The notes under the pieces: model-generated
Databases searched by the model: none
Seen by the model: the letters and a program-made list of their open reading frames with translations, nothing else
Told to the model about the DNA's origin: nothing
DNA from: Candidatus Kaiserbacteria bacterium CG10_big_fil_rev_8_21_14_0_10_45_20
Lineage (GTDB): Bacteria > Patescibacteriota > Minisyncoccia > Phycocordibacterales > Phycocordibacteraceae
Assembly (NCBI GenBank): GCA_002773335.1
Contig: PFBH01000014.1
Span: forward strand, 8,023 to 72,022
Reading direction: 5' to 3'
DNA: 64,000 nt
Program-made: the position numbers and the translations under genes
Part shown: one piece after another, positions 28,287 through 56,319 of the stretch
Layout of the letters: each line of letters opens with the position of its first letter
Position numbering within the stretch: position 1 is the stretch's first letter

Positions 28287-28317
28287 AAAAAAGACCCTCT
28301 CTTTAGGGTCTTTTTTA
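28287..28317. terminator. Bidirectional terminator between rplB and the transposase-like gene
   Basis: AAAAAAGACCCT-CTCTTT-AGGGTCTTTTTT. Confidence 0.8.
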
Positions 28318-29001
28318 ATATGGGTACTGTTCTGTGTCAGAAAGCTCTTCCTCTAATATTTTTGCTGTTGATGTATTTACAAAGTCTTTGTAGTTGCTAT
28401 TTGGAGTTGTTTCAAATTGTTCGGCGATAATATCTGACTCAAGAAGTCCTCCCCACCGGTTTGCTTCGGTAAGGTCTTGAAGAGAAGACCAAGGATATGA
28501 AAACTCTTTATTTTTCCAAGCAGACAGTTCACGGGGGTTTCTATGAATATATGCTGAAAGGTAGAGTAACTGTTTATTATCTTTTACGTGCACCGATTTA
28601 AAACGGCCTTGAAACACATGACCAGAAAGATGGTGACGTGTATTCATATACATCGTGTGAGCAACGAGGATTCGTTGCATATAGGCACTGATTCCTCCCG
28701 GGATCTTTTCGCGAACAAGGAGGTGGAAGTGGTTAGGCATAAGACAAAAAGAGGTAAGCTCAACAAAACGTGACTGCAAAACCTCAGAAAGCTTTTTTTC
28801 TGAAACGGGAAACCCAGTGAGCGCGTTGTAATTTTTTATATACCGCGTGACATTTTCAAACTGAATTGGTGACTGGAAGTAGAGGATGGAGAATAAAAAA
28901 CGCCGGCGATCAATATCATCTTTAAAAATATTTCCTCTACGCGAACCTCTATTGAAAATGTGGTAGTACTCGCCTTCAGCAATATTGCGTTTCTGAGTCA
29001 T
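28315..29001 (-). CDS. REP-associated tyrosine transposase-like protein (RAYT, Y1/HUH family)
   Basis: YYHIFNRG, IFKDD, FCLMPNHFHLL (HUH), GHVFQGRFKS, YIHRNP, YPWSS; start placed at ATG 29001. Confidence 0.9.
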   Translation of the reverse strand: MTQKRNIAEGEYYHIFNRGSRRGNIFKDDIDRRRFLFSILYFQSPIQFENVTRYIKNYNALTGFPVSEKKLSEVLQSRFVELTSFCLMPNHFHLLVREKIPGGISAYMQRILVAHTMYMNTRHHLSGHVFQGRFKSVHVKDNKQLLYLSAYIHRNPRELSAWKNKEFSYPWSSLQDLTEANRWGGLLESDIIAEQFETTPNSNYKDFVNTSTAKILEEELSDTEQYPY

Positions 29002-29016
29002 ATCTTTTTTGAGTGT

Positions 29017-29056
29017 AACACAAATGTTGGAGACCCGGGTCTCCAACATTTGTGTT
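29017..29056. repeat. Perfect 40-bp palindrome (REP-like) directly upstream of the RAYT
   Basis: AACACAAATGTTGGAGACCC|GGGTCTCCAACATTTGTGTT. Confidence 0.9.
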
Positions 29057-46495: not shown

Positions 46496-46869
46496 CCACC
46501 TCCACAATCACAAATACCCCTTGCGGGGTATTTGTGATTGTGGAGGTGGAAGGTGGCGTCAGCTCACTCAGTATTTTGTTTCGCTCGATAGTTCGCTCAC
46601 AAAATACTGAGTGGCTCCTGCCCGGGCTCGTCCGTCGCAGGGCGGCATGACTCCGCCTTTCATTCCCCCACGAAAGCCAAGCAGTTGGCTTTCTCCACTG
46701 CGTTTGAAATCTGTTAAGCGCTCGCGACCCCGGCTCGGCTTTTCTCTTTCGCAGGAAAATACAACGAAAGAGAAATATACCTCCGCCCGGTTCATTCCCC
46801 ACGCACAGTGCGCAGGCACTGTGCTCCCACCACCCAATAAAAATACCCCTTGCGGGGTATTTGTGATTG
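46496..46869 (-). repeat. Modular structured trailer downstream of tmRNA containing direct and inverted copies of the tmRNA 3' end
   Basis: AAATACCCCTTGCGGGGTATTTGTGATTGTGGAGGTGG at 46512-46549 and 46841-46878; inverted T-arm copies at 46659-46698 and 46789-46834. Confidence 0.85.
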
Positions 46870-47257
46870 TGGAGGTGGGGGGGAATGAACCCCCGTCCGA
46901 AAAGGGTCTTTGGGACGACTCTACAAAGCGTAGTTCTTTTTTTCACCGTGAAGTGAATTTAAGTATTAGTGTATAAAACGAACAAAAGAAGCTAATACCG
47001 AGCTCTCAATTTTCGAGAAGTTGTACGAGCAAAAAACTTCCTTATTCCGACTATATTACACCGGGTATCTCACTGTCAGAAAGAGTGAGATTCGATGCTG
47101 CTTAGGCTAAAGCGTAAGCAGGAGCACCTACGAACTGAGCGTAAGGGCTCTTAACAAGTGATTTTACACTTTGGGTTACTCGAGATTTTAGGTGTTCTCG
47201 AGCATTCACCGCTTTGCACGAAACAAAGGTGACCTTCCGTCAAAACTAGTCACCCCC
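46870..47257 (-). ncRNA. ssrA: tmRNA
   Basis: 5' GGGGGTGACTAGTTTTGAC, 3' GACGGGGGTTCATTCCCCCCCACCTCCA (G3-U pair), internal tag frame ending ...GAPAYALA*; adjacent to smpB. Confidence 0.95.
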
Positions 47258-47354
47258 CCACAGTATGTCCGCGTACGAACCTGTTCGTACAAGAGCTGGT
47301 ATGAAATATTCATAACAACTCTTGGCGGATATACTGTGGCCGAGCGACTAGTGC

Positions 47355-47798
47355 TTATTCTCCTTTCAATGTTCTGTCTATGTGGCGTTTCGTATCTTTT
47401 GCTTTCAATAGCGCACGTTTATCATACCTCTTTTTGTGTCGCGCTACAGCAAATTCCAACTTTACCTTCCTGTTACCATTATACCACTTTATCGGGATAA
47501 TTGTCAACCCTCTCTTCCCGTCTTGTTCTGCAAGTTCAAGAATCTCTTTTTTTGAAAGAAGCAGTCGGCGTGCCCGTTCAGGGTCGTATGATGCAGGCGT
47601 GTTCTTTTCTTGATATGGAGATATCGAAGCTCCAACCAGAAACACTTCACCTCCTCGCACTAATACACGAGCTCCAAGCAAAGAAGCTTTTCCTGCACGA
47701 ATGGCTTTTACTTCATACCCAAAAAGCTCTGCTCCTGCAGAGTACGTTTCAAGAAATTCATAGTCAAAATGCGCCTTTTTGTTTTCTACAAATGCCAT
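47355..47798 (-). CDS. smpB: SsrA-binding protein SmpB
   Basis: NKKAHFDY, AGAELFGYEVKAIR, RRLLL, GLTIIP, YDKR. Confidence 0.96.
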   Translation of the reverse strand: MAFVENKKAHFDYEFLETYSAGAELFGYEVKAIRAGKASLLGARVLVRGGEVFLVGASISPYQEKNTPASYDPERARRLLLSKKEILELAEQDGKRGLTIIPIKWYNGNRKVKLEFAVARHKKRYDKRALLKAKDTKRHIDRTLKGE

Positions 47799-47894
47799 AC
47801 CAAACAGTGTACAACGTCATACCTGTTTACGCATTTGCCACACGCCACTGCAGTAGTTTTGGAGTTGCGCTAAATGACAGGTATACTACGAAGA

Positions 47895-49853
47895 ATGAAT
47901 AACGCATCGTCTGGGAAAGGCTCTAAAAAACCTACATCACCAAAAAAAACACCGCCTGGTTTTGGAAAACGAGGTCCTCGTATTAAACGTCCACAAAATA
48001 AATATGGAGGAAACTTTACACTTTCGTTAATCGCAGCGCTCATTGTGTTAACGATCTACTCGTTTATGACTAGTCAGTCGGGCGATGTTGAGGATATCTC
48101 ACTCTCTACACTCGCGTCAGATATTAAGTCTGAGCTGGTAGAAGAAATTACCGTGCAAGGAGATACACTGACCATCGTGTATACAGACGAGACAAAAAAG
48201 AAGGCAAAAAAAGAACCAGACAGCTCGCTTTCAACAACGCTCGTAAACTATGGACTCACCCCAGACGAGTTTGCGTCAGTCTCTATACTTGTTGAAAACG
48301 AAGGAGGGTTTCGTTTTTGGTTCTTCTCACTCGCTCCAATTCTCGTTCCGCTACTCTTGATTGTTGTGTTTATTTGGTACCTCTCGCGACAGGTAAAGGG
48401 GGCGGGAGTGCAAGCCTTCACGTTTGGGCAGTCAAAAGCGCGTCTCATTGATCCGAAAGATAAGGTGCAACGAGTAACGTTTGCTGATGTTGCTGGCGCA
48501 AAAGAGGCGAAAGAAGAGCTAACAGAGATTGTAGATTTTCTAAAGAACCCAAAAAAATTCTTAGATATTGGAGCCACCATTCCAAAGGGTGTGTTAATGA
48601 TGGGTGCGCCGGGTACCGGAAAGACTCTCTTAGGGCGAGCTGTTGCCGGAGAGGCGGGAGTGCCTTTCTTCTCTATATCGGGTTCAGAGTTTGTAGAAAT
48701 GTTTGTAGGAGTTGGGGCAAGCCGTGTTCGCGACCTCTTTAAAATGGCGAAAGCATCGGCACCTGCAATTATATTTGTTGACGAAATTGACGCGGTGGGG
48801 CGCGTACGTGGAACCGGCGTTGGCGGTGGAAACGATGAACGCGAGCAGACACTGAACCAAATCTTGGTTGAGATGGACGGGTTTGAGCCAACAGAAAAGG
48901 TGATTGTGATGGCTGCGACAAACAGACCAGACGTACTTGACCCTGCGCTGTTGCGACCGGGGCGTTTTGACAGAAGGGTCACCATTGACCTGCCTGACCG
49001 TGATGGTAGAGAAGAGATACTCAAGATCCACGCCCGCAAAAAGCCACTCGCCGAAGACGTAAACCTGCGCGTCATTGCCGAGAGAACTCCAGGATTTTCT
49101 GGGGCTGACTTGCAGTCACTAATGAACGAAGGGGCTATCCTTGCCGCGCGAGAAGACCGCAAAAAGGTGTCGCAGTTTGACTTGGTGCGTTCAATTGAAA
49201 AGGTTATGCTCGGGCCTGAACGTAAAACACACTTGCTGAACAAGAAAGAAAAAGAAGTGACGGCATACCACGAAGCAGGTCATGCGCTCATTGCCTCGGT
49301 GTTGCCGTACGCTGATCCGGTTCACAAGATATCTATTATTTCTCGCGGTCGGGCAGCGGGGTACACACTAAAACTTCCTCTCGAAGATAAGAAGATGCAA
49401 TCTAAAAAAGAGTTCTTGGACGACATTGCTGTTTCTCTTGGCGGATACGTGGCAGAGAGAATGGTATTTGGTGATCTCACCACCGGCCCTTCAAATGACC
49501 TGCAAGTACTTACGTCACTGGCGCGCGATATGGTAACAAAGTATGGTATGTCGGATAAAATGGGACCGGTTGCGCTTGAAGGAGAGGGAGGCAAGGCGCT
49601 GTTTGGAAGGGGAGTAAATGAAAAAGAGTACTCAGAGCGCGTGTCGGCAGAAATTGACGCTGAGGTAAAACAGATTGTTGACGAAGCCTACGCAAAAGCA
49701 ACCACCATTCTGACCGACCACCGAAAGGCACTTGATGCCATCTCTGCAAAACTTATGGAAGTAGAAACGCTTGAGCGCGATGAATTTGAGAAGCTTTTGG
49801 TGGTTCACGGTATTGAGCCAAAGAAAAAACAAGACATAGAGCACCAAACGTAG
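47895..49853 (+). CDS. ftsH: ATP-dependent zinc metalloprotease FtsH
   Basis: Two TM segments, [42 protein letters not shown]. Confidence 0.97.
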
Positions 49854-49886
49854 AGGGAAAGCGCTGAGTCGTTAGAGATCTATAAT

Positions 49887-49922
49887 AAAAAACACCTTCC
49901 GTTGTGCTCGGAAGGTGTTTTT
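49887..49922 (+). terminator. Intrinsic terminator after ftsH
   Basis: AAAAACACCTTCCG-TTGTGCT-CGGAAGGTGTTTTT. Confidence 0.8.
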
Positions 49923-50041
49923 GGTGAAACATTCTTGCAAAAACTCACTGCTTTTGTTGGGTTGTATATCCACATGGTGTGTGGATAGTATTTGTACGTT
50001 TAAACTATAATATAAAAGAGATAGTTTAAATGTTCGGTATT

Positions 50042-50734
50042 ATGTCAAAGTTTTCAAAACGAGACCTAGCGATTCGGATGCGAGAAAAAGGAATGAGTTA
50101 TTCTCAAATAAAAGAGCATTTGCAAGTCAGTAAAAGCACCCTTAGTTTATGGCTTCGTCATATGCCCCTCTCGGAACAGAGAATACGAGAACTGCGAGAT
50201 CACTCTGAGCAACGAATAGAGAAAACAAGGGAAACAAAACGAAAGAAAAAGTTACAGCGTATACGCAGTGTTTACTCTGAGGCTGTAAAAGATATTGGTA
50301 AAGTTTCAAAAAGAGAACTGTATATAGCGGGGTTTTTTCTCTATTGGGGGGAGGGGGTAAAAGCTGATCCGTATACAACGATGTTTACGAATACTGACCC
50401 TGCTATGGTGAAGTGTTTCATTCAGTGGATCGCTCTTTTAGGAGTAAAAAAATCTGACTTGAAAGTATATCTACACGTTTATAGTGATATGGACATTCCC
50501 CAAATAATTACATTCTGGTCTAATGAATTAAATATCCCTCAATCGTCGTTTCGGAAACCATACGTTAAAAAAAGTGTTGCTGGTAAACAAAAAAATTATA
50601 AGGGTCGTTTTGGTTTTGGTACCTGTAATATATATGTGCGTAATAGAGACATACGTGAAAAAATAATTATGTCTATTGCCAGGATACGAGAAGTCTATGG
50701 GGGTATTGCTTTTGACCCTGAAAAAGAGATATAG
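50042..50734 (+). CDS. tRNA-adjacent protein with N-terminal HTH and LAGLIDADG-like C-terminal domain
   Basis: KGMSYSQIKEHLQVSKSTLSLWLR (HTH); IAGFFLYWGEG followed by FTNTDP; ends 7 nt before a tRNA. Confidence 0.7.
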   Translation: MSKFSKRDLAIRMREKGMSYSQIKEHLQVSKSTLSLWLRHMPLSEQRIRELRDHSEQRIEKTRETKRKKKLQRIRSVYSEAVKDIGKVSKRELYIAGFFLYWGEGVKADPYTTMFTNTDPAMVKCFIQWIALLGVKKSDLKVYLHVYSDMDIPQIITFWSNELNIPQSSFRKPYVKKSVAGKQKNYKGRFGFGTCNIYVRNRDIREKIIMSIARIREVYGGIAFDPEKEI

Positions 50735-50741
50735 TTTAAAT

Positions 50742-50816
50742 CCGCCCTTAGCTCAATTGGTTAGAGCATCTAGCTTATACCTAGAAGGTTTCCTGGTTCG
50801 AGTCCAGGAGGGCGGA
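50742..50816 (+). tRNA. tRNA-Ile(UAU)
   Basis: Cloverleaf: CCGCCCT/AGGGCGG acceptor, GCTC/GAGC D stem, TCTAG-CT TAT AC-CTAGA anticodon arm, CCTGG-TTCGAGT-CCAGG T arm; CCA not encoded. Confidence 0.93.
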
Positions 50817-51220
50817 CATGATAGAGAAAAGCAAACTGCTTTGCTTTTCTCGATACATGTCCGAGCCGGAGCCATGTTTTTCCAGCAGGAAAAACAGGCG
50901 AGGCGGGGTCGCGGAATTTTGCGAGTGACTGACGAGCAAAATATCCGTGACGACCAGACAGAAATATCCCGCCTGCGCGGGATTTTCTGCGTCAGTCCGA
51001 GGCACAGGGTTGTGTGAGTTTGAGCGAAGCGAAAGGCGAACACCCCGAGCCGGGGTCACCACAAGAGTACTTCTATTTCTCTAATTCGATGACTCATAAG
51101 AGAAATTGGTCGCGCGAAAAATTTCCGTTAGGAAATTTATTTGTGACGACCAGATACAAATATCCCGCCTGCGCACTGTTTTTGTTTACATGTCCGAGCC
51201 GTACCACACGGGCACTTCAC
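50817..51220 (+). repeat. Modular structured trailer downstream of tRNA-Ile
   Basis: Blocks shared with the tRNA-Ser and tmRNA trailers; internal direct repeats GTGACGACCAGA..AAATATCCCGCCTGCGC (50947, 51143) and TACATGTCCGAGCCG (50854, 51187). Confidence 0.85.
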
Positions 51221-51282
51221 AAACGTGTGCAAAAAATCATTGTAGTGGCAATAACACATAACATCCTATATCATAGCTGTAT

Positions 51283-51675
51283 ATGGCAAAGGTAATACAA
51301 TTTCCCGGTAGCCCAGAGAAGCGAAGACGAATGGCTCAGGAAAGAAAATTAAGGGAAGATAGGGATTATTTTGATAAAAACAGAGCAAAGGTGCGCGTTG
51401 CCCTTGATCGACAAAAGGCATTTTCTCAACAAGTTTTTACAGAAGATATGCAAGGTAAAAAGAAAACACTCTTTGCTCACGAAAAAGACGCCTTTTCTCA
51501 AATGTCACTTGAAGACTTAATTCACGAAGCGTGGAATATTGACGAGACGGTATGGAGCGGTACACCAGCGCGAGCAAAGGCTTTCCTTTCTGCTCTGGGT
51601 GCTCGAATTGTTCGATGTGGTGGCTTTAGTGATGTTATTTCTGACCCTTCAGAGTATCCAGATGATATTGGATAA
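51283..51675 (+). CDS. Hypothetical protein (130 aa)
   Basis: ORF filling the gap between the tRNA trailer and recG; no recognised motif. Confidence 0.6.
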   Translation: MAKVIQFPGSPEKRRRMAQERKLREDRDYFDKNRAKVRVALDRQKAFSQQVFTEDMQGKKKTLFAHEKDAFSQMSLEDLIHEAWNIDETVWSGTPARAKAFLSALGARIVRCGGFSDVISDPSEYPDDIG

Positions 51676-51682
51676 GCTGACA

Positions 51683-53812
51683 CTATTCAAAGTGGAGGCT
51701 CCGAGCTTTCTTTTGAGACATCTCGCCAAGCGCGGGATGTTTTTTTAATATCGGATCTTTGGCAACCAATGCAAACGCTTCAGTGCGTGCCGCTTCAACC
51801 AGCTTAAGGTTTTTGAGTGCCTCCATTCCAATATCGGAGAGGCCGGATTGGTGCCTTCCGTATAATTCTCCAGCCCCCCTGATAGATAAATCTTTTTCGG
51901 CAAGCTCAAACCCATTCTTTGCTGTTTGTATTGCTTTTAATCGGGACGATTCGCTTTTGGCAGACGATTCAACCATTAAAAAACAGTATGGCTGGTGACT
52001 TGAGCGCATTACGCGCCCACGAAGTTGGTGGAGTTGTGCCAACCCAAACCTGTCAGCTCCCTCTATCATAATCACGGTAGCGTTTGGAACGTTTACACCA
52101 ACCTCAACGACAGAGGTTGCTACTAAAATATCTATCTCTCCGTTAGCGAACGAGTTCATCACGTCTTCTTTTTCTTTCGGAGTCATTTTGCTGTGCAATT
52201 TTTCAATACGCCACTCTGGAAACACGCTCTCTTTGAGGCGTTTTGTCTCTGACGCAACACTCCTCGTTTGAAGAGCCATATACTTTGTTGGATCAGGCTC
52301 ATCAATGCGCGGGCAAATAACGTATGCTTGATGACCCTCTTTCAGAAGTTCTAACACTTTTTTATACGCGGTGTCTCTTTTTGGAGGTGTAATGATATCG
52401 GTAACAATGGCCTTTCTTCCAAGAGGCATCTGCTCAAGTACCGTTAAATCAAGGTCTCCGTAGAGTGTGAGCGCAAGCGTGCGGGGTATTGGTGTTGCGG
52501 TCATTGAAAGGAGGTGGGGCGACGCACCGTCTTTTTTTGCAATTTCTTTTCTTTGCGCGGTACCAAATCGATGCTGTTCGTCGATAATAACGTAGGCGAG
52601 GTGTTTAAAATTAACTGTCTTCTGTATAAGAGAGTGCGTTCCAATAAGAATTGGAATTTCTCCATTTGCCACCCACTTTAGTAGTTGAGTGCGAGAAATA
52701 GGCGTCGCGTCTTTTTTATTTACCTTTGATGGAAACTTGTAACAACCGCTTGATGTTATAAGCCCGATATTGATAGGGTGATCGATAAAAAAATCGGTAA
52801 ATGTTTTAAAGTGTTGCTTTGCCAAAATCTCAGTCGGTACCATATAGGCAACCTGAAGGTTGCCAAAATCCTGCCCGTGGGGGCGCGAAGTCACTACACT
52901 GTAGGCGGTTGCAGCAGCGACAGCCGTCTTTCCGCTTCCTACGTCTCCTTCAAGGAGGCGGTGCATAGGGTAACTATTTTCAAAATCTTTCAAAATGTCA
53001 CTGATAGAGTCCACCTGCCCTTTTGTGGGGGTAAACGGAAACGAGTCAATAAACGTCTGAAGCTTTTTTTTGTCTGTGTCTATAACGTACGACTTCTCGT
53101 TTTTATTTCGCTCTCGTTCTTTTGCACGGTCAACTTGAATAAGAAACACCTCTTCAAATGCAAACCGTTTTCGCGCTGTTTCTGCGTCTTTTTCTTTTTT
53201 GGGTTGGTGCGCAAAGACAAACGAGTCTCTGAGTGATGGCAGGTTATATTTTTTTAAAATGGTAGGAGGTATAACGTCTTCAATAAAATCAAGCACATCA
53301 CTGCGCAGTACTTTTTGGATGGTGTGGTACAGCCACAGAGACGAGACGCCGGCTGACTCTGGGTACACCGGAAAGAGCCCTTCGTATCCCTCAAGAATGG
53401 GAATGCATGTTGCTTTCTCAACAACGGGGTTGGCGACATACTTCTTTCCGTTTCGTTCGGTTACTTTTCCACGAATACGAACGAGCTCTCCTTCTTGAAT
53501 CATTTTTGCCAGATACGGTTGATGAAACCACACAACACGGAGGGTATGAGATCCGTCAGAAAACGAACCTTCTGCCATCGGTACTTTTGTGCGGAATGAT
53601 TTTTTTATTTCTAATTTAGAAAACTGACCATATATAACCACTGTTTCATTTGGCTCTGCGGTTGCAATGCGCCTAATATCGGCAGAAGACTCGTACCGAG
53701 AGGGGATGTGGTACAAAAGGTCCAGCACCGTTTCTATACCAAGCTTTGTGAGGGCAACAGCTTGCTGTTTCTGTATCCTAAAATGAGAAGAGAGCGTATC
53801 GTGTGGCTTCAT
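51683..53812 (-). CDS. recG: ATP-dependent DNA helicase RecG
   Basis: RLLEGDVGSGKT, PTEILAKQH, IIDEQHRFG, MTATPIPRTL, QLHQLRGRV; start placed at ATG 53812. Confidence 0.96.
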   Translation of the reverse strand: MKPHDTLSSHFRIQKQQAVALTKLGIETVLDLLYHIPSRYESSADIRRIATAEPNETVVIYGQFSKLEIKKSFRTKVPMAEGSFSDGSHTLRVVWFHQPYLAKMIQEGELVRIRGKVTERNGKKYVANPVVEKATCIPILEGYEGLFPVYPESAGVSSLWLYHTIQKVLRSDVLDFIEDVIPPTILKKYNLPSLRDSFVFAHQPKKEKDAETARKRFAFEEVFLIQVDRAKERERNKNEKSYVIDTDKKKLQTFIDSFPFTPTKGQVDSISDILKDFENSYPMHRLLEGDVGSGKTAVAAATAYSVVTSRPHGQDFGNLQVAYMVPTEILAKQHFKTFTDFFIDHPINIGLITSSGCYKFPSKVNKKDATPISRTQLLKWVANGEIPILIGTHSLIQKTVNFKHLAYVIIDEQHRFGTAQRKEIAKKDGASPHLLSMTATPIPRTLALTLYGDLDLTVLEQMPLGRKAIVTDIITPPKRDTAYKKVLELLKEGHQAYVICPRIDEPDPTKYMALQTRSVASETKRLKESVFPEWRIEKLHSKMTPKEKEDVMNSFANGEIDILVATSVVEVGVNVPNATVIMIEGADRFGLAQLHQLRGRVMRSSHQPYCFLMVESSAKSESSRLKAIQTAKNGFELAEKDLSIRGAGELYGRHQSGLSDIGMEALKNLKLVEAARTEAFALVAKDPILKKHPALGEMSQKKARSLHFE

Positions 53813-53844
53813 GCTAAATTGTTTCAAGTATACCTCTCTTATAT

Positions 53845-55005
53845 ATGACACGAAAGAAAAAGTATATCGGCGCCCACTCCCTCTCTGAGCACAAGAAATT
53901 AAAAGGGAAGATCGAGGTTGTAGGAAAAGTGCACCTTAAAACACTTGAAGACTGGTCAACTTTTTACACGCCGGGGGTAGGGGCCGTTTCAACGCACCTT
54001 GGCAAAACTCCGGAAGATGCTCGTGTCTACACCATTAAACGAAACACGGTGGCAGTTGTCTCGGACGGCTCTGCTGTACTCGGCTTAGGAAACATCGGCC
54101 CTTATGGAGCACTGCCGGTGATGGAAGGTAAAGCACTTATCTTTAAAGATAGGGCGAACATTGATGCGTTTCCGATTGTGCTTGATACGCAAGACCCCGA
54201 CGAGATTATTGAGACGGTAGTGCGTATTGCCCCTGCCTTTGGAGGCATCAACCTTGAGGATATTGCCGCTCCACAGTGTTTTTATATTGAAGAAGAGTTA
54301 AAGAAACGACTACCAATACCGGTAATGCATGACGACCAACACGGCACCGCGATTGTCGTTTTAGCAGGGTTAATAAACGCACTAACGGTGGTAAAGAAAA
54401 AGTTGTCAGCAGTCTCTATTACTGTCGTTGGAGCAGGGGCCGCCGGTTTTGCCATCGCTCAATTATTAAAAAAAGCGGGAGCGTCTGACATTCGCGTCAC
54501 TGATCGAGTGGGGGTTATTGGAAAACATCGCGCAGGTCTTGCACCCCACAAAACCGTTTTGGCAAACCTCCCTACAAAACGTCCAAGAGCGGTAACACTA
54601 CTAGACGCGACGACTGACTCTGACGTCTTAATTGCGGTATCGGGCCCCGGTACGGTAACTGCTGAGCACATTATCGCGATGAATAGTAATGCCATTGTGT
54701 TTGCGCTCGCAAACCCGACTCCGGAAATTATGCCAAACATTGCAACGCAGGCGGGGGCAACAGTGGTCGCAACGGGGCGGTCCGATTTTCCGAACCAGAT
54801 AAACAACGCACTCGTCTTCCCGGGTATTTTTAGAGGGGCGCTTGATAGCGGTGTTTCCGATATTACTGAGGATATGAAACTAAAGGCCGCGTACGCGCTG
54901 GCACGGTTAGTGAAGGCTCCTCACAAAGATAATATTGTGCCGTCTGTCCTTGACGGTAAGGTGGCAAAGGCGGTGGCACGAGCGGTGAGCGGTTTTAAAA
55001 AATAA
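53845..55005 (+). CDS. NAD(P)-dependent malic enzyme
   Basis: YTPGV, VVSDGSAVLGLGNIG, PVMEGKA, INLEDI, HDDQHGTA, GAGAAG, ANPTPEI, NQINN. Confidence 0.94.
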   Translation: MTRKKKYIGAHSLSEHKKLKGKIEVVGKVHLKTLEDWSTFYTPGVGAVSTHLGKTPEDARVYTIKRNTVAVVSDGSAVLGLGNIGPYGALPVMEGKALIFKDRANIDAFPIVLDTQDPDEIIETVVRIAPAFGGINLEDIAAPQCFYIEEELKKRLPIPVMHDDQHGTAIVVLAGLINALTVVKKKLSAVSITVVGAGAAGFAIAQLLKKAGASDIRVTDRVGVIGKHRAGLAPHKTVLANLPTKRPRAVTLLDATTDSDVLIAVSGPGTVTAEHIIAMNSNAIVFALANPTPEIMPNIATQAGATVVATGRSDFPNQINNALVFPGIFRGALDSGVSDITEDMKLKAAYALARLVKAPHKDNIVPSVLDGKVAKAVARAVSGFKK

Positions 55006-55006
55006 T

Positions 55007-55663
55007 ATGTCGGCAGAGTCATTTAAGAGAGCAAGAGATCGTTGGCAAATTGAAAGAGAGGCTAAGATTTTTCTTTCAAAAAAAGGTATTGCAAAGTGGA
55101 AAGAGAGGTTAGAGCAAGAAGGGCTCCGTAAATTTCATGACGCGATTATTGATACTCGGTGGGTACGGGTTCCTGATATACGCGGTCGATTTGTGAGCGC
55201 TCGCCTCCGTACCGCGACAGAGAAAAAAGACCCGAAGCAGTTTTTATGGGCAATTAAGGTTCGTACATCAGCGCACTCTGAGGCAAAGCACATTAAAGAG
55301 TGTTACGAACTCGAAGGAAGTGGAGATTCAATGAAATCAGTACGAAAAGAACTCAAGAAACACTTAAGGGCGGTGCTCGGCAAAGAAACTCCAGACAAGT
55401 TGATAGAAGATAGGCGTCTTATAAAACGACGAGTGTCGTACGAAACGCAAGATCTTAACCACTCACTTTTTGGCGTACGGTTTGATATAGATACACTTGA
55501 GACTGTGAACGGTAAAAAAATAGACCCTCCCATCCACATTCTCGAACTAGAGGGGCTTTCGGAAACGTTGATACTCTCAGCGACTAAACACTTGGGGATA
55601 GATCCGCAAAAACTTTCTTCTATATCAGGCAAGGTATTGCTGAAAGAGACGGGGTATTTGTAG
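55007..55663 (+). CDS. Hypothetical protein, possible CYTH/triphosphate-tunnel family
   Basis: N-terminal IEREAK (ExExK), RLR, YELE, KRRVSY, FDID, LELEG pattern. Confidence 0.6.
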   Translation: MSAESFKRARDRWQIEREAKIFLSKKGIAKWKERLEQEGLRKFHDAIIDTRWVRVPDIRGRFVSARLRTATEKKDPKQFLWAIKVRTSAHSEAKHIKECYELEGSGDSMKSVRKELKKHLRAVLGKETPDKLIEDRRLIKRRVSYETQDLNHSLFGVRFDIDTLETVNGKKIDPPIHILELEGLSETLILSATKHLGIDPQKLSSISGKVLLKETGYL

Positions 55664-56232
55664 AGAGTGCGGGATGTGTCTTCGCTACGCTCGCACGCAT
55701 CGGTCACAGATATTTTGTTCGCCGTCGCTCACAAAATTCCGCGCGACCAATTTCTCTTACGAGTCTGCGAGTTAGAGAAATGGAAGTACTCTTGTGGTGA
55801 CCCTGTCTCGCGACCCATTCTGCTGAATGGGTACCCTGCTCCGGCTTTCGCGACTTTGTTTTGTTACGAACGAAGTGAGTTAGAAAACAAGAAGTGCCCG
55901 TGTGGTACGACTTTGTTTTGTTACGAACGAAGTGAGTTAGAAAACAAGAAGTGCCCGTGTGGTGAATCCCGACGTAAAGCACGCAGGTGCTTTACTCACT
56001 CTCCGCAGTATACTCACTGCGCTCGAATCTGCGGAGAGTGCGGGATGTGTCTTCGCTACGCTCGCACGCATCGGTCAGGAATAATTTGCTCGTCAGTCAC
56101 TCGCAAATTTTCACGACCCTGGCTCGTCTGTTTTTTCTGCTGAAAAAACATGACTGCGCCTTTCGAATCCCGACGTAAAGCACGCAGGTGCTTTACTCAC
56201 TCTCCGCAGTATACTCACTGCGCTCGAATCTG
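55663..56232 (-). repeat. Modular structured trailer downstream of tRNA-Ser with duplicated tRNA 3' ends
   Basis: 83-bp direct repeat 55964-56046/56165-56247; 44-bp repeat 55663-55706/56034-56077; 56-bp tandem 55851-55906/55908-55963. Confidence 0.9.
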
Positions 56233-56319
56233 CGGAGAGTGCGGGATTCGAACCCGCGAGGGCGGTTAAGCCCTACCTCGTTAGCAGTGAGGCGCTTTCG
56301 ACCACTCAGCCAACTCTCC
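56233..56319 (-). tRNA. tRNA-Ser(GCU)
   Basis: GGAGAGT/ACTCTCC acceptor, CCTCA-CT GCT AA-CGAGG anticodon arm, long variable arm AGGGC-TTAACC-GCCCT, GCGGG-TTCGAAT-CCCGC, discriminator G. Confidence 0.95.

Follow-up and report, generated by a model that had tools for sequence, protein, structure and literature searches.

Hairpin-built, host-oriented repeat cassettes behind tRNA, tmRNA and other translation genes in a Candidatus Kaiserbacteria genome and its order

The analysis of a 64,000-nt stretch of a draft metagenome-assembled genome of Candidatus Kaiserbacteria bacterium CG10_big_fil_rev_8_21_14_0_10_45_20 (contig PFBH01000014.1 of GCA_002773335.1, positions 8,023 to 72,022; this whole stretch is the window, and positions refer to it unless a contig or locus is named) reveals a family of repeated cassettes that lie behind tRNA, tmRNA, efp and rplK genes and point in the direction of the gene they follow. 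Common to the trailers of these genes, beside other modules, is a core of ~90 nt, a two-hairpin unit that keeps its fold through compensatory changes both within this genome and across its order. We read the family, at a probability of about 45%, as transposase-independent, co-transcribed non-autonomous insertion cassettes whose fold is kept by selection, insertion, transcription and function being the parts of this reading that we infer. Its main rival, a 3'-end element that benefits the host gene, is a possibility that we take seriously without favoring it.

Three non-coding RNA genes were located in the window with Rfam, namely tmRNA at 46867-47257(-), tRNA-Ile(TAT) at 50742-50816(+) and tRNA-Ser(GCT) at 56233-56319(-); ARAGORN also found the two tRNA genes and missed the tmRNA, though Rfam gives it 94.3 bits. 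Behind each gene, reading in its direction, lie 370-570 nt of non-coding sequence made up of hairpins. The tRNA-Ile and tRNA-Ser trailers share an 88-nt block at 84% identity (50864-50951 and 56074-56161), which lies in opposite orientations in the genome and in the same orientation relative to each host gene, together with a 74-nt block at 89% identity (51046-51119 and 55737-55810), and the tmRNA trailer has shorter blocks in common with the other trailers. The original prediction, made from the letters of the window alone, had held that the three trailers use the same building blocks in the direction of their hosts, the tmRNA trailer included, and it was right in both respects and in its coordinates. 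It had also described units bounded by copies of the host 3' end at the Ser and tmRNA loci, and these copies proved to be exact: an 83-nt unit containing the terminal 15-16 nt of tRNA-Ser is present twice at 100% identity (55964-56046 and 56165-56247), as is a 38-nt unit with the tmRNA 3' end (46512-46549 and 46841-46878). For the core set, nhmmer seeds, eight same-length copies of the source genome aligned by coordinates and a covariance model, R1, were used. The parts of the three trailers are given below, each set headed by its host gene.

46867..47257, minus strand: tmRNA gene, host 1 (Rfam RF00023, 94.3 bits).
46829..46878, minus strand: host hairpin H at the tmRNA, consisting of the tmRNA 3' end, a terminator-like hairpin and the start of an inverted copy of the tmRNA 3' end, and including the 46841-46878 copy of direct repeat D5 (sequence and fold; bounds by eye).
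46710..46788, minus strand: divergent core of the tmRNA trailer (weak model match, G000:C3:54732-54810(-), E 0.26), in a region with 82% identity over 112 nt to the tRNA-Trp trailer.
46558..46667, minus strand: second core-like unit of the tmRNA trailer, with the junction motif, a short first hairpin and a long second hairpin (by eye and minimum-energy fold, approximate bounds; no covariance-model match).
46496..46549, minus strand: distal copy of the tmRNA 3' end with terminator, extended to a perfect 25-bp palindrome (inverted repeat I4, direct repeat D5).
50742..50816, plus strand: tRNA-Ile(TAT) gene, host 2 (ARAGORN, Rfam).
50811..50864, plus strand: long hairpin with a CTGC loop at 50836-50839, whose outer stem is formed by the last bases of tRNA-Ile paired with their complement (inverted repeat I23, fold; bounds by eye).
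50864..50954, plus strand: core Ile-1, with P0, the P1 hairpin and the P2 hairpin (model R1, 107.7 bits; pair counts).
50962..50988, plus strand: small CTGC-loop hairpin between the two Ile cores (bounds by eye).
50993..51151, plus strand: core-like unit Ile-2, whose P2 is interrupted at its start by an extra hairpin, 51046-51119 (89% to the Ser locus in inverted repeat I2; fold; bounds by eye; no R1 match in the window searches).
51138..51220, plus strand: partial repeat of earlier segments of the Ile trailer, together with a piece of the 57-nt module (inverted repeats I5 and I13, direct repeats D6 and D12).
56233..56319, minus strand: tRNA-Ser(GCT) gene, host 3 (ARAGORN, Rfam).
56165..56247, minus strand: host hairpin H, copy 1, consisting of the last 15-16 nt of tRNA-Ser, a hairpin and an inverted 3'-end copy, the latter interrupted by a 25-nt CTGC-loop hairpin (direct repeat D1).
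56071..56161, minus strand: core Ser-1 (model R1, 104.3 bits).
55964..56046, minus strand: host hairpin H, copy 2, matching copy 1 at 83/83 positions (100%; direct repeat D1).
55851..55963, minus strand: two tandem copies of the 57-nt module (direct repeat D3).
55700..55846, minus strand: core Ser-2, split by the same inserted hairpin as Ile-2 (R1 half-matches at 55794-55846 and 55700-55772; inverted repeat I2).
55656..55721, minus strand: small hairpin, then a third, 13-nt copy of the tRNA-Ser 3' end that closes the array (direct repeat D2).

The core has a recurrent architecture in which a 3-bp helix, P0, surrounds an internal loop, with GGA on one side and GA on the other, and a hairpin, P1, that frequently carries an AGCA loop. 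A short G-rich junction leads into the long hairpin P2, which has a bulged A and, close to its variable tip, tandem G-A pairs. In the eight copies of the source genome 92.8% of the cells are paired and 21 of the 32 pairs change on both sides between copies, values that none of 500 shuffles attained (0/500), and sliding the partners against each other lowers the pairing to 38-50%. Compensatory differences, which the original prediction had picked out between two copies, recur in 34 distinct copies from at least 20 genomes, in which 93.6% of the cells are paired and 27 of 31 pairs show compensatory changes in an alignment that was fitted to model R1, which favors structure. At one position a G.U pair is retained by 30 of 31 copies. 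Throughout the helices, G.U greatly outnumbers A.C (59:4 and 89:8, or 29:4 and 50:5 once the invariant pair is removed). A mismatch that reads A.C here would read G.U on the complementary strand, so it is the host-sense strand whose fold is preserved, either as RNA or as that strand of the DNA. Searches with Rfam 15 returned only the tmRNA and the two tRNAs at gathering thresholds in the window, and at E <= 1 across 15 cassette loci (29,081 nt) only tRNAs rose above threshold, the remainder being scattered sub-threshold chance matches, in keeping with the earlier impression that this is not a named family. A full-text search of the literature, judged from result listings and the openings of abstracts, turned up no description of such elements in these bacteria. 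Taken as a whole, there is good support for the core as a candidate new RNA family.

Several more specific identities for the core were considered and rejected. A hammerhead ribozyme has CUGANGA and GAAA conserved around three helices; a CUGACGA string stands in some P2 tips and is replaced in others, and no Rfam ribozyme matched at E <= 1. A K-turn bound by L7Ae is disfavored by the absence of PF01248 from all 41 genomes searched (0/41) and by the GGA/GA loop itself, which has one extra base and not a three-base bulge. A small peptide encoded in P1, where an ATG after GGAG is common, was set aside, as it is not conserved and copies differ by single-base gaps and compensatory stem changes.

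The genome from which the window comes (G000; 608,577 nt in 22 contigs, with 31 tRNA genes) was examined by extending BLAST searches outward from the three trailers until saturation, which gave ~3.9 kb of related sequence at ~17 loci; when read by eye, at least 16 of its 32 tRNA/tmRNA genes carry such a trailer, and further copies lie 3' of efp, of rplK and of an unidentified open reading frame. Model R1 yields 19 matches at E <= 1 in this genome, and 14 of them fall downstream of a same-strand tRNA or tmRNA gene, at most 600 nt from its 3' end, compared with 1.6% expected (binomial P ~6e-22, a value that overstates independence because matches within an array are dependent, the 14 matches representing 10 loci). 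The bias toward tRNA genes and toward their orientation thus extends genome-wide from the three window loci. A description of the family as trailers of tRNA-like genes needs two corrections: efp and rplK are hosts as well, and only about half of the tRNA genes carry a cassette. Blocks of 40-110 nt are shared between loci at 80-100% identity, which marks the cassettes as mosaics of modules. One cassette that does not adjoin a tRNA gene is preceded by an open reading frame coding for a SLATT_4 domain (E 4e-9; L014:180-695(+), contig C22:2179-2694 of G000).

Across the order, R1 matches were found in 33 of 41 genomes and 12 of 17 genera, with up to 21 per genome; eight of the 41 genomes have no match at E <= 0.01, and five of these are 97-100% complete. 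Beyond it, weak matches occur in four of 149 genomes drawn evenly from the phylum, and none in the five genomes from other orders of the class (0/5). The position behind tRNA genes recurs in the relatives: among their 19 best loci, a tRNA or tmRNA lies directly upstream on the same strand in 11, and a copy-by-copy reading of three genomes gives 10/12 (G013), 8/11 (G029) and 4/6 (G035), or 22/29 in total, so that the two sets united place 31 of 46 loci just 3' of a tRNA or tmRNA gene on its strand. Two short core matches in G029 (L062 and L064) lie upstream of tRNA-Ile(GAT) and tRNA-Asn, not behind them, and may themselves follow a ribosomal RNA gene. In G013, a genome of one contig, plus and minus copies interleave (225-400 kb) and always follow the host gene, not the replication arm. 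Related cores stand behind more than 20 different tRNA species, and occupied sites turn over between genomes: the sets of occupied tRNAs differ, and the source genome and G013 share three where 3.75 would be expected by chance, according to our own tally. Even the nearest of the genomes compared is distant from the source genome, with EF-P only 70% identical and intergenic DNA that cannot be aligned at that distance.

The cassettes are flanked by an inverted and often also a direct copy of the end of their own host gene, its final 15-25 bases, and these copies have fixed boundaries. For the 32 genes of the source genome, a reverse-complement copy of the last 22 nt exceeds the 95th percentile of mismatched controls in 10 and a direct copy in nine; for 31 tRNA-linked loci in 12 other genomes, the 99th percentile is exceeded by the inverted copy in 10 and by the direct copy in 14. 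When 27 loci were aligned by position, the inverted copy was found to run from a few bases past the tRNA 3' end inward to T54, with its inner end at the first T-loop base, in TTCG or TTCA, in 22 of the 27. A hairpin of 22-26 nt is inserted into the inverted copy in 13 of the 27 loci, and in 10 of these 13 it sits within 1 nt of the boundary between T stem and acceptor. At 13 of 35 loci the first base of the direct copy is C56 of the T loop, and at eight of those 13 its last base lies no more than 3 nt from the tRNA 3' end. Three loci hold an exact duplication of the whole host hairpin (83/83, 74/74 and 51/51), and cassette-free tRNA, efp and rplK sites, inspected by eye, have no inverted copy. 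Between the host end and its inverted copy we counted 618 Watson-Crick pairs, 10 G.U, 14 A.C and 21 others; as this lacks the wobble bias seen in the core, the inverted copy is probably a templated DNA copy and not an RNA partner under selection.

Protein genes show the same arrangement with their own ends. Behind efp of the source genome, a CTGC hairpin follows the stop codon immediately, then comes the core and then a partial direct copy of the first arm of the hairpin. An R1 core is present at three of 18 efp loci (G000, G007 and G009), of which the 11 belonging to the genus were read by eye; G004 retains the hairpin and leader without the core, as a remnant, and the closest relative, G001, has nothing behind efp. 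At rplK of the source genome, the last four codons, the stop codon and an 8-nt complement form a hairpin that is present three times (28 nt each), with a small core and a second type of module between the copies and a canonical terminator after the last one. This arrangement was found at four of 14 rplK loci inspected among 20 located (G000, G001, G011 and G029) and is missing from the other 10; each complement matches the codons of its own genome, and the G029 host belongs to a different family from the other three.

Hairpins with a CTGC loop, on unrelated stems, are frequent beside the cores. The source genome has 153 perfect hairpins with a 7-bp stem and a 4-nt loop, 15 of which carry CTGC, and all 15 fall within the 5,796 nt (0.95% of the genome) that the family occupies; the 47 trailers read in host orientation contain 27 hairpins with CTGC and none with GCAG. 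Being confined to the family and biased in strand, the CTGC hairpins are therefore part of the cassette system and not ordinary host terminators. Two further modules were recognized. The 57-nt module forms tandem pairs at 93-100% identity in five trailers of the source genome (window 55851-55963(-); C3:1-118; C12:93214-93385; C15:9018-9106; C22:10704-10759), and the tip of its hairpin resembles, on the opposite strand, the tip motif of cores with a long P2. In the second module type, a short hairpin that contains a CTGTAAGG-like string comes after a long A/U-rich one (L088:930-1010(-); the tRNA-Lys trailer L015; L018; L103; L106). Two families of the order have this module behind rplK, tRNA-Lys and tRNA-Tyr, where it lies between the inverted and the direct copy.

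The reading that we prefer, that of non-autonomous insertion cassettes, would bring these features together as follows. Template switching or recombination at the 3' hairpin of the host may insert or duplicate a module; for tRNA and tmRNA genes that hairpin would be the T arm, whose loop contains the palindrome TTCGAA, and the family may spread by a copying step that duplicates the terminal hairpin of the host. The cassette would then be read through with its host as part of the 3' trailer, and its fold would be kept because it makes that trailer self-contained and harmless or useful in a lineage without detected Rho or canonical RNase Z. The original prediction had left the choice between a non-autonomous element family and a structured RNA selected for its fold, and each half finds support: variable occupancy (three of 18 efp loci, for instance), host ends duplicated both ways and shuffled modules point to the former, and covariation, the excess of G.U over A.C and the 27:0 bias of the CTGC hairpins in host orientation point to the latter. 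Several observations nevertheless weigh against insertion cassettes. In many loci the core is separated from its host gene by a terminator-like hairpin with a run of T, and read-through would therefore be limited. Template switching alone does not explain a ~25-nt hairpin at the same place of the inverted copy in many independent loci, and no enzyme for the insertion step came out of the searches. That rplK and tmRNA each serve as host in two different families may point to placements that are old and conserved, and the fit of the 34-copy alignment to R1 tilts its pair counts toward structure. Two copies from one genome are about as diverged (mean identity 0.55-0.64) as two from genomes of different families (0.56-0.62), with no sign of recent bursts; near-identical pairs are few, at 0.93 in G029 and 0.98 in G035, and the latter pair sits at two contig ends and may be one locus. 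Such divergence, with its compensatory changes, fits long-term selection on each copy, as a host function would entail.

It is accordingly possible, if on the unlikely side, that the core is a cis-acting RNA of benefit to the host in the 3' trailers of highly expressed genes of the translation apparatus, for example a structure for 3'-end processing, for stopping exonucleases or for back-up termination, and that mobility amounts to occasional duplication and loss. Strand-specific covariation in every copy without burst-like similarity within genomes is what such a function predicts, and the family is kept across an order of strongly reduced genomes. Its hosts are tRNA, tmRNA, efp and rplK, with rplK and tmRNA serving in two families; the rplK cassettes lie, by eye, between the stop codon and the canonical terminator; no transposase is associated with the family, and neither Rho (0/5) nor RNase Z over its cut-off (0/5) was found in the five genomes of the order that were searched, four of which have RNase III, which was not found in the source genome. 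A host function sits poorly, however, with the lack of any match at E <= 0.01 in eight of 41 genomes, including G034 (100% complete) and G040 (99%), with copy numbers from 0 to 21, with the occupation of only about half of the tRNAs in sets that differ by genome and overlap no more than chance between G000 and G013 (3 against 3.75), and with occupancy of just 3/18 efp and 4/14 inspected rplK loci. A further, improbable proposal is an insertion process of some unfamiliar type, like CRISPR adaptation, that would duplicate the hairpin of host end and mirror copy with each added module; at tRNA and tmRNA genes, mirror and direct copies would give the module a tRNA-like acceptor/T-arm cap, with the 25-nt hairpin standing in for the D and anticodon arms, and tRNA-processing enzymes would release the modules as a new class of small RNA. 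Taken without the insertion process, the idea of independent tRNA-capped small RNA genes, in which inverted and direct copies would pair as an acceptor/T-arm-like helix, the 25-nt hairpin would replace the D and anticodon arms and tRNA-processing enzymes would release stable small RNAs, appears to us a long shot. It accounts for the split of the inverted copy near the T-stem/acceptor boundary (within 1 nt in 10 of 13), for a direct copy that starts at C56 and ends within 3 nt of the tRNA 3' end in eight of 13 such loci, and for the order of 5'-strand mimic, module, 3' strand and CA, as in a tRNA. Yet tRNA and direct copy disagree at 34 positions, and at these the inverted copy goes with the tRNA in 31 cases and with the direct copy in three, so that there is no compensatory signal for such a helix; the direct copy also stays under the 99th percentile at 17 of 31 loci, and the efp and rplK hosts have no tRNA-like end.

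Mobilization of the cassettes as REP- or REPIN-type repeats by a resident RAYT-like transposase is quite unlikely and by now largely refuted. The window does contain a Y1 transposase gene at 28315-29049(-), between rplB and rpsS, whose 244-aa product is recognized by Pfam (E 1.3e-10) and weakly resembles REP-associated tyrosine transposases, and the genome has a second, weaker homologue; the cassettes are extragenic, hairpin-built, multi-copy and modular, like clusters of REP sequences. The product scores 37 bits against the NCBIfam model, however, under the cut-off of 80, and the palindrome on the 5' side of the gene is single-copy in the genome and unrelated to the cassettes. Y1 homologues occur in 34 of the order's 41 genomes, those of the genus among them without exception (24/24), and presence of the cassette is not associated with them (both in 28, cassette only in five, Y1 only in six, neither in two); the five cassette-only genomes have no PF01797 (0/5), and one of them, 99% complete, holds 15 copies. 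Every module points the same way as its host, without inverted doublets, and follows host transcription and not the replication strand, and a consensus of 28 core copies has no GTAG head. A derivation from IS200/IS605 elements (PATE) or a TnpB guide RNA was rejected on similar grounds, as TnpB (PF07282) is absent from the five genomes searched (0/5), the cassettes do not track Y1 and orientation in G013 does not follow the replication strand. Other candidate mobilizers are scarce: reverse transcriptase PF00078, expected for repeats derived from group II introns or retrons, is present in one of five genomes and absent from G000, G013, G029 and G035, Cas1 (PF01867) is found in none of five, the DEDD transposase of IS110/IS1111 bridge-RNA elements (PF01548) exceeds its cut-off in none of 41, and the cassette trailers read have no long open reading frame. 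We regard as very improbable that the cassettes are decayed integrase-borne islands that once integrated in the T loop of tRNA and tmRNA genes and left att duplications. Direct repeats from the T loop to the tRNA 3' end match that classical footprint, to which the inverted copy of the host end is foreign; the same ~90-nt core of selected structure stands behind more than 20 tRNA species and behind protein genes, and each of the five genomes searched has a single tyrosine recombinase (PF00589), the cassette-free G034 included. There is next to no chance that the family is an assembly artefact of a repeat-rich metagenome bin: contigs do break at the repeats, with several tRNA genes at contig ends, and N runs lie inside two arrays, but short contigs from four public runs reproduce internal pieces exactly, and the same architecture is seen in dozens of independent genomes, one of them a single contig.

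The assembly bears on the arrays in a different way. Contigs both of the assembly and of the four public runs break at cassette repeats, and in the source genome the starts of C3, C6, C11 and C15 and the end of C12 lie in cassettes or right behind tRNA genes, so that the repeat family is a likely cause of the fragmentation of this genome. The blocks are real, and the order and number of identical units per array are those of the draft assembly; the public-run contigs bridge no array, and the joints listed from them have sides of 20-39 nt, which cannot be distinguished from other loci or organisms.

A few features of the host genes in the window were also recorded. All three continue with CA, not CCA, after the discriminator, as the original prediction had observed; the same holds for most tRNA genes of the genome, with or without a cassette, while a few encode CCA, and it looks to be a general trait of the genome rather than a property of the cassettes. 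The anticodon TAT of tRNA-Ile is unusual in bacteria, and the relative G017 has the same tRNA with a cassette (L017). A promoter-like perfect TTGACA-18-TATAAT with TG lies at 47507-47478(-), ~220 nt upstream of the tmRNA. A promoter scan of the three trailers found no strong promoter-like site inside them; the counts of the promoter and terminator scan were not above those of shuffles, and the scan missed the rplK terminator that is plain by eye.

These findings bear on genomes of the candidate phyla radiation that measure 0.5-1 Mb and have little spare DNA, yet most of the order keep 5-20 copies of the cassette. If the cassettes are mobile, they have spread without the usual enzymes and with the host end copied in two orientations, which would point to a new mechanism of insertion; if they are functional, they bear on the formation of tRNA 3' ends and on the ending of transcription in this lineage. 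In either case, the family would explain why assemblies of these genomes break at tRNA genes.

Comparison with known systems places the cassettes near several of them. Like REP, BIME and REPIN-RAYT repeats, they are short, hairpin-forming, multi-copy, extragenic and mosaic, lie at gene 3' ends and share a genome with a RAYT-like gene; unlike them, they do not track Y1, lack the GTAG head and the inverted doublets, have a much larger two-hairpin core with order-wide covariation, carry host-specific inverted and direct end copies and show a strong bias toward tRNA and tmRNA genes. Integrative elements at tRNA and tmRNA genes leave an att duplication that reaches from the T loop to the 3' end. 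The cassettes share with them a direct repeat of the 3' part of the tRNA from the T loop, which bounds the insert and exceeds the 99th percentile at 14 of 31 loci, as well as the tmRNA target and the tandem arrays; they differ in their units of ~130-250 nt, which are non-coding and bear no integrase, in the related cores behind so many tRNA species, in the added inverted copy and in the efp and rplK hosts.

Casposons target the 3' ends of tRNA or elongation-factor genes, and CRISPR arrays duplicate a repeat when a spacer is inserted. The cassettes likewise occupy the ends of tRNA and translation-factor genes and form arrays in which hairpins and modules alternate, the hairpins stemming from the host and being identical (two of 83 nt at tRNA-Ser, three of 28 nt at rplK); here, in contrast, Cas1 is absent from the five genomes searched, the 'repeat' comes from the end of the host gene itself and the 'spacers' are conserved structured modules. 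With the attC sites of integrons they have in common the conservation of structure over sequence, strand-specific folding, a bulged base, a fixed G.U/G.T mismatch and co-oriented arrays, whereas no GTTRRRY-like box is seen in the core consensus, the units hold no open reading frames, and the single tyrosine recombinase per genome came from searches that were not aimed at an integron integrase. The distal repeats of E. coli tyrT are units of 178 bp, each with the 3' end of tRNA-Tyr. Although tyrT is a single locus, with no structured core shared across tRNAs and no inverted copy, it offers the parallel that copies of a tRNA 3' end recur in the trailer of that tRNA's own gene.

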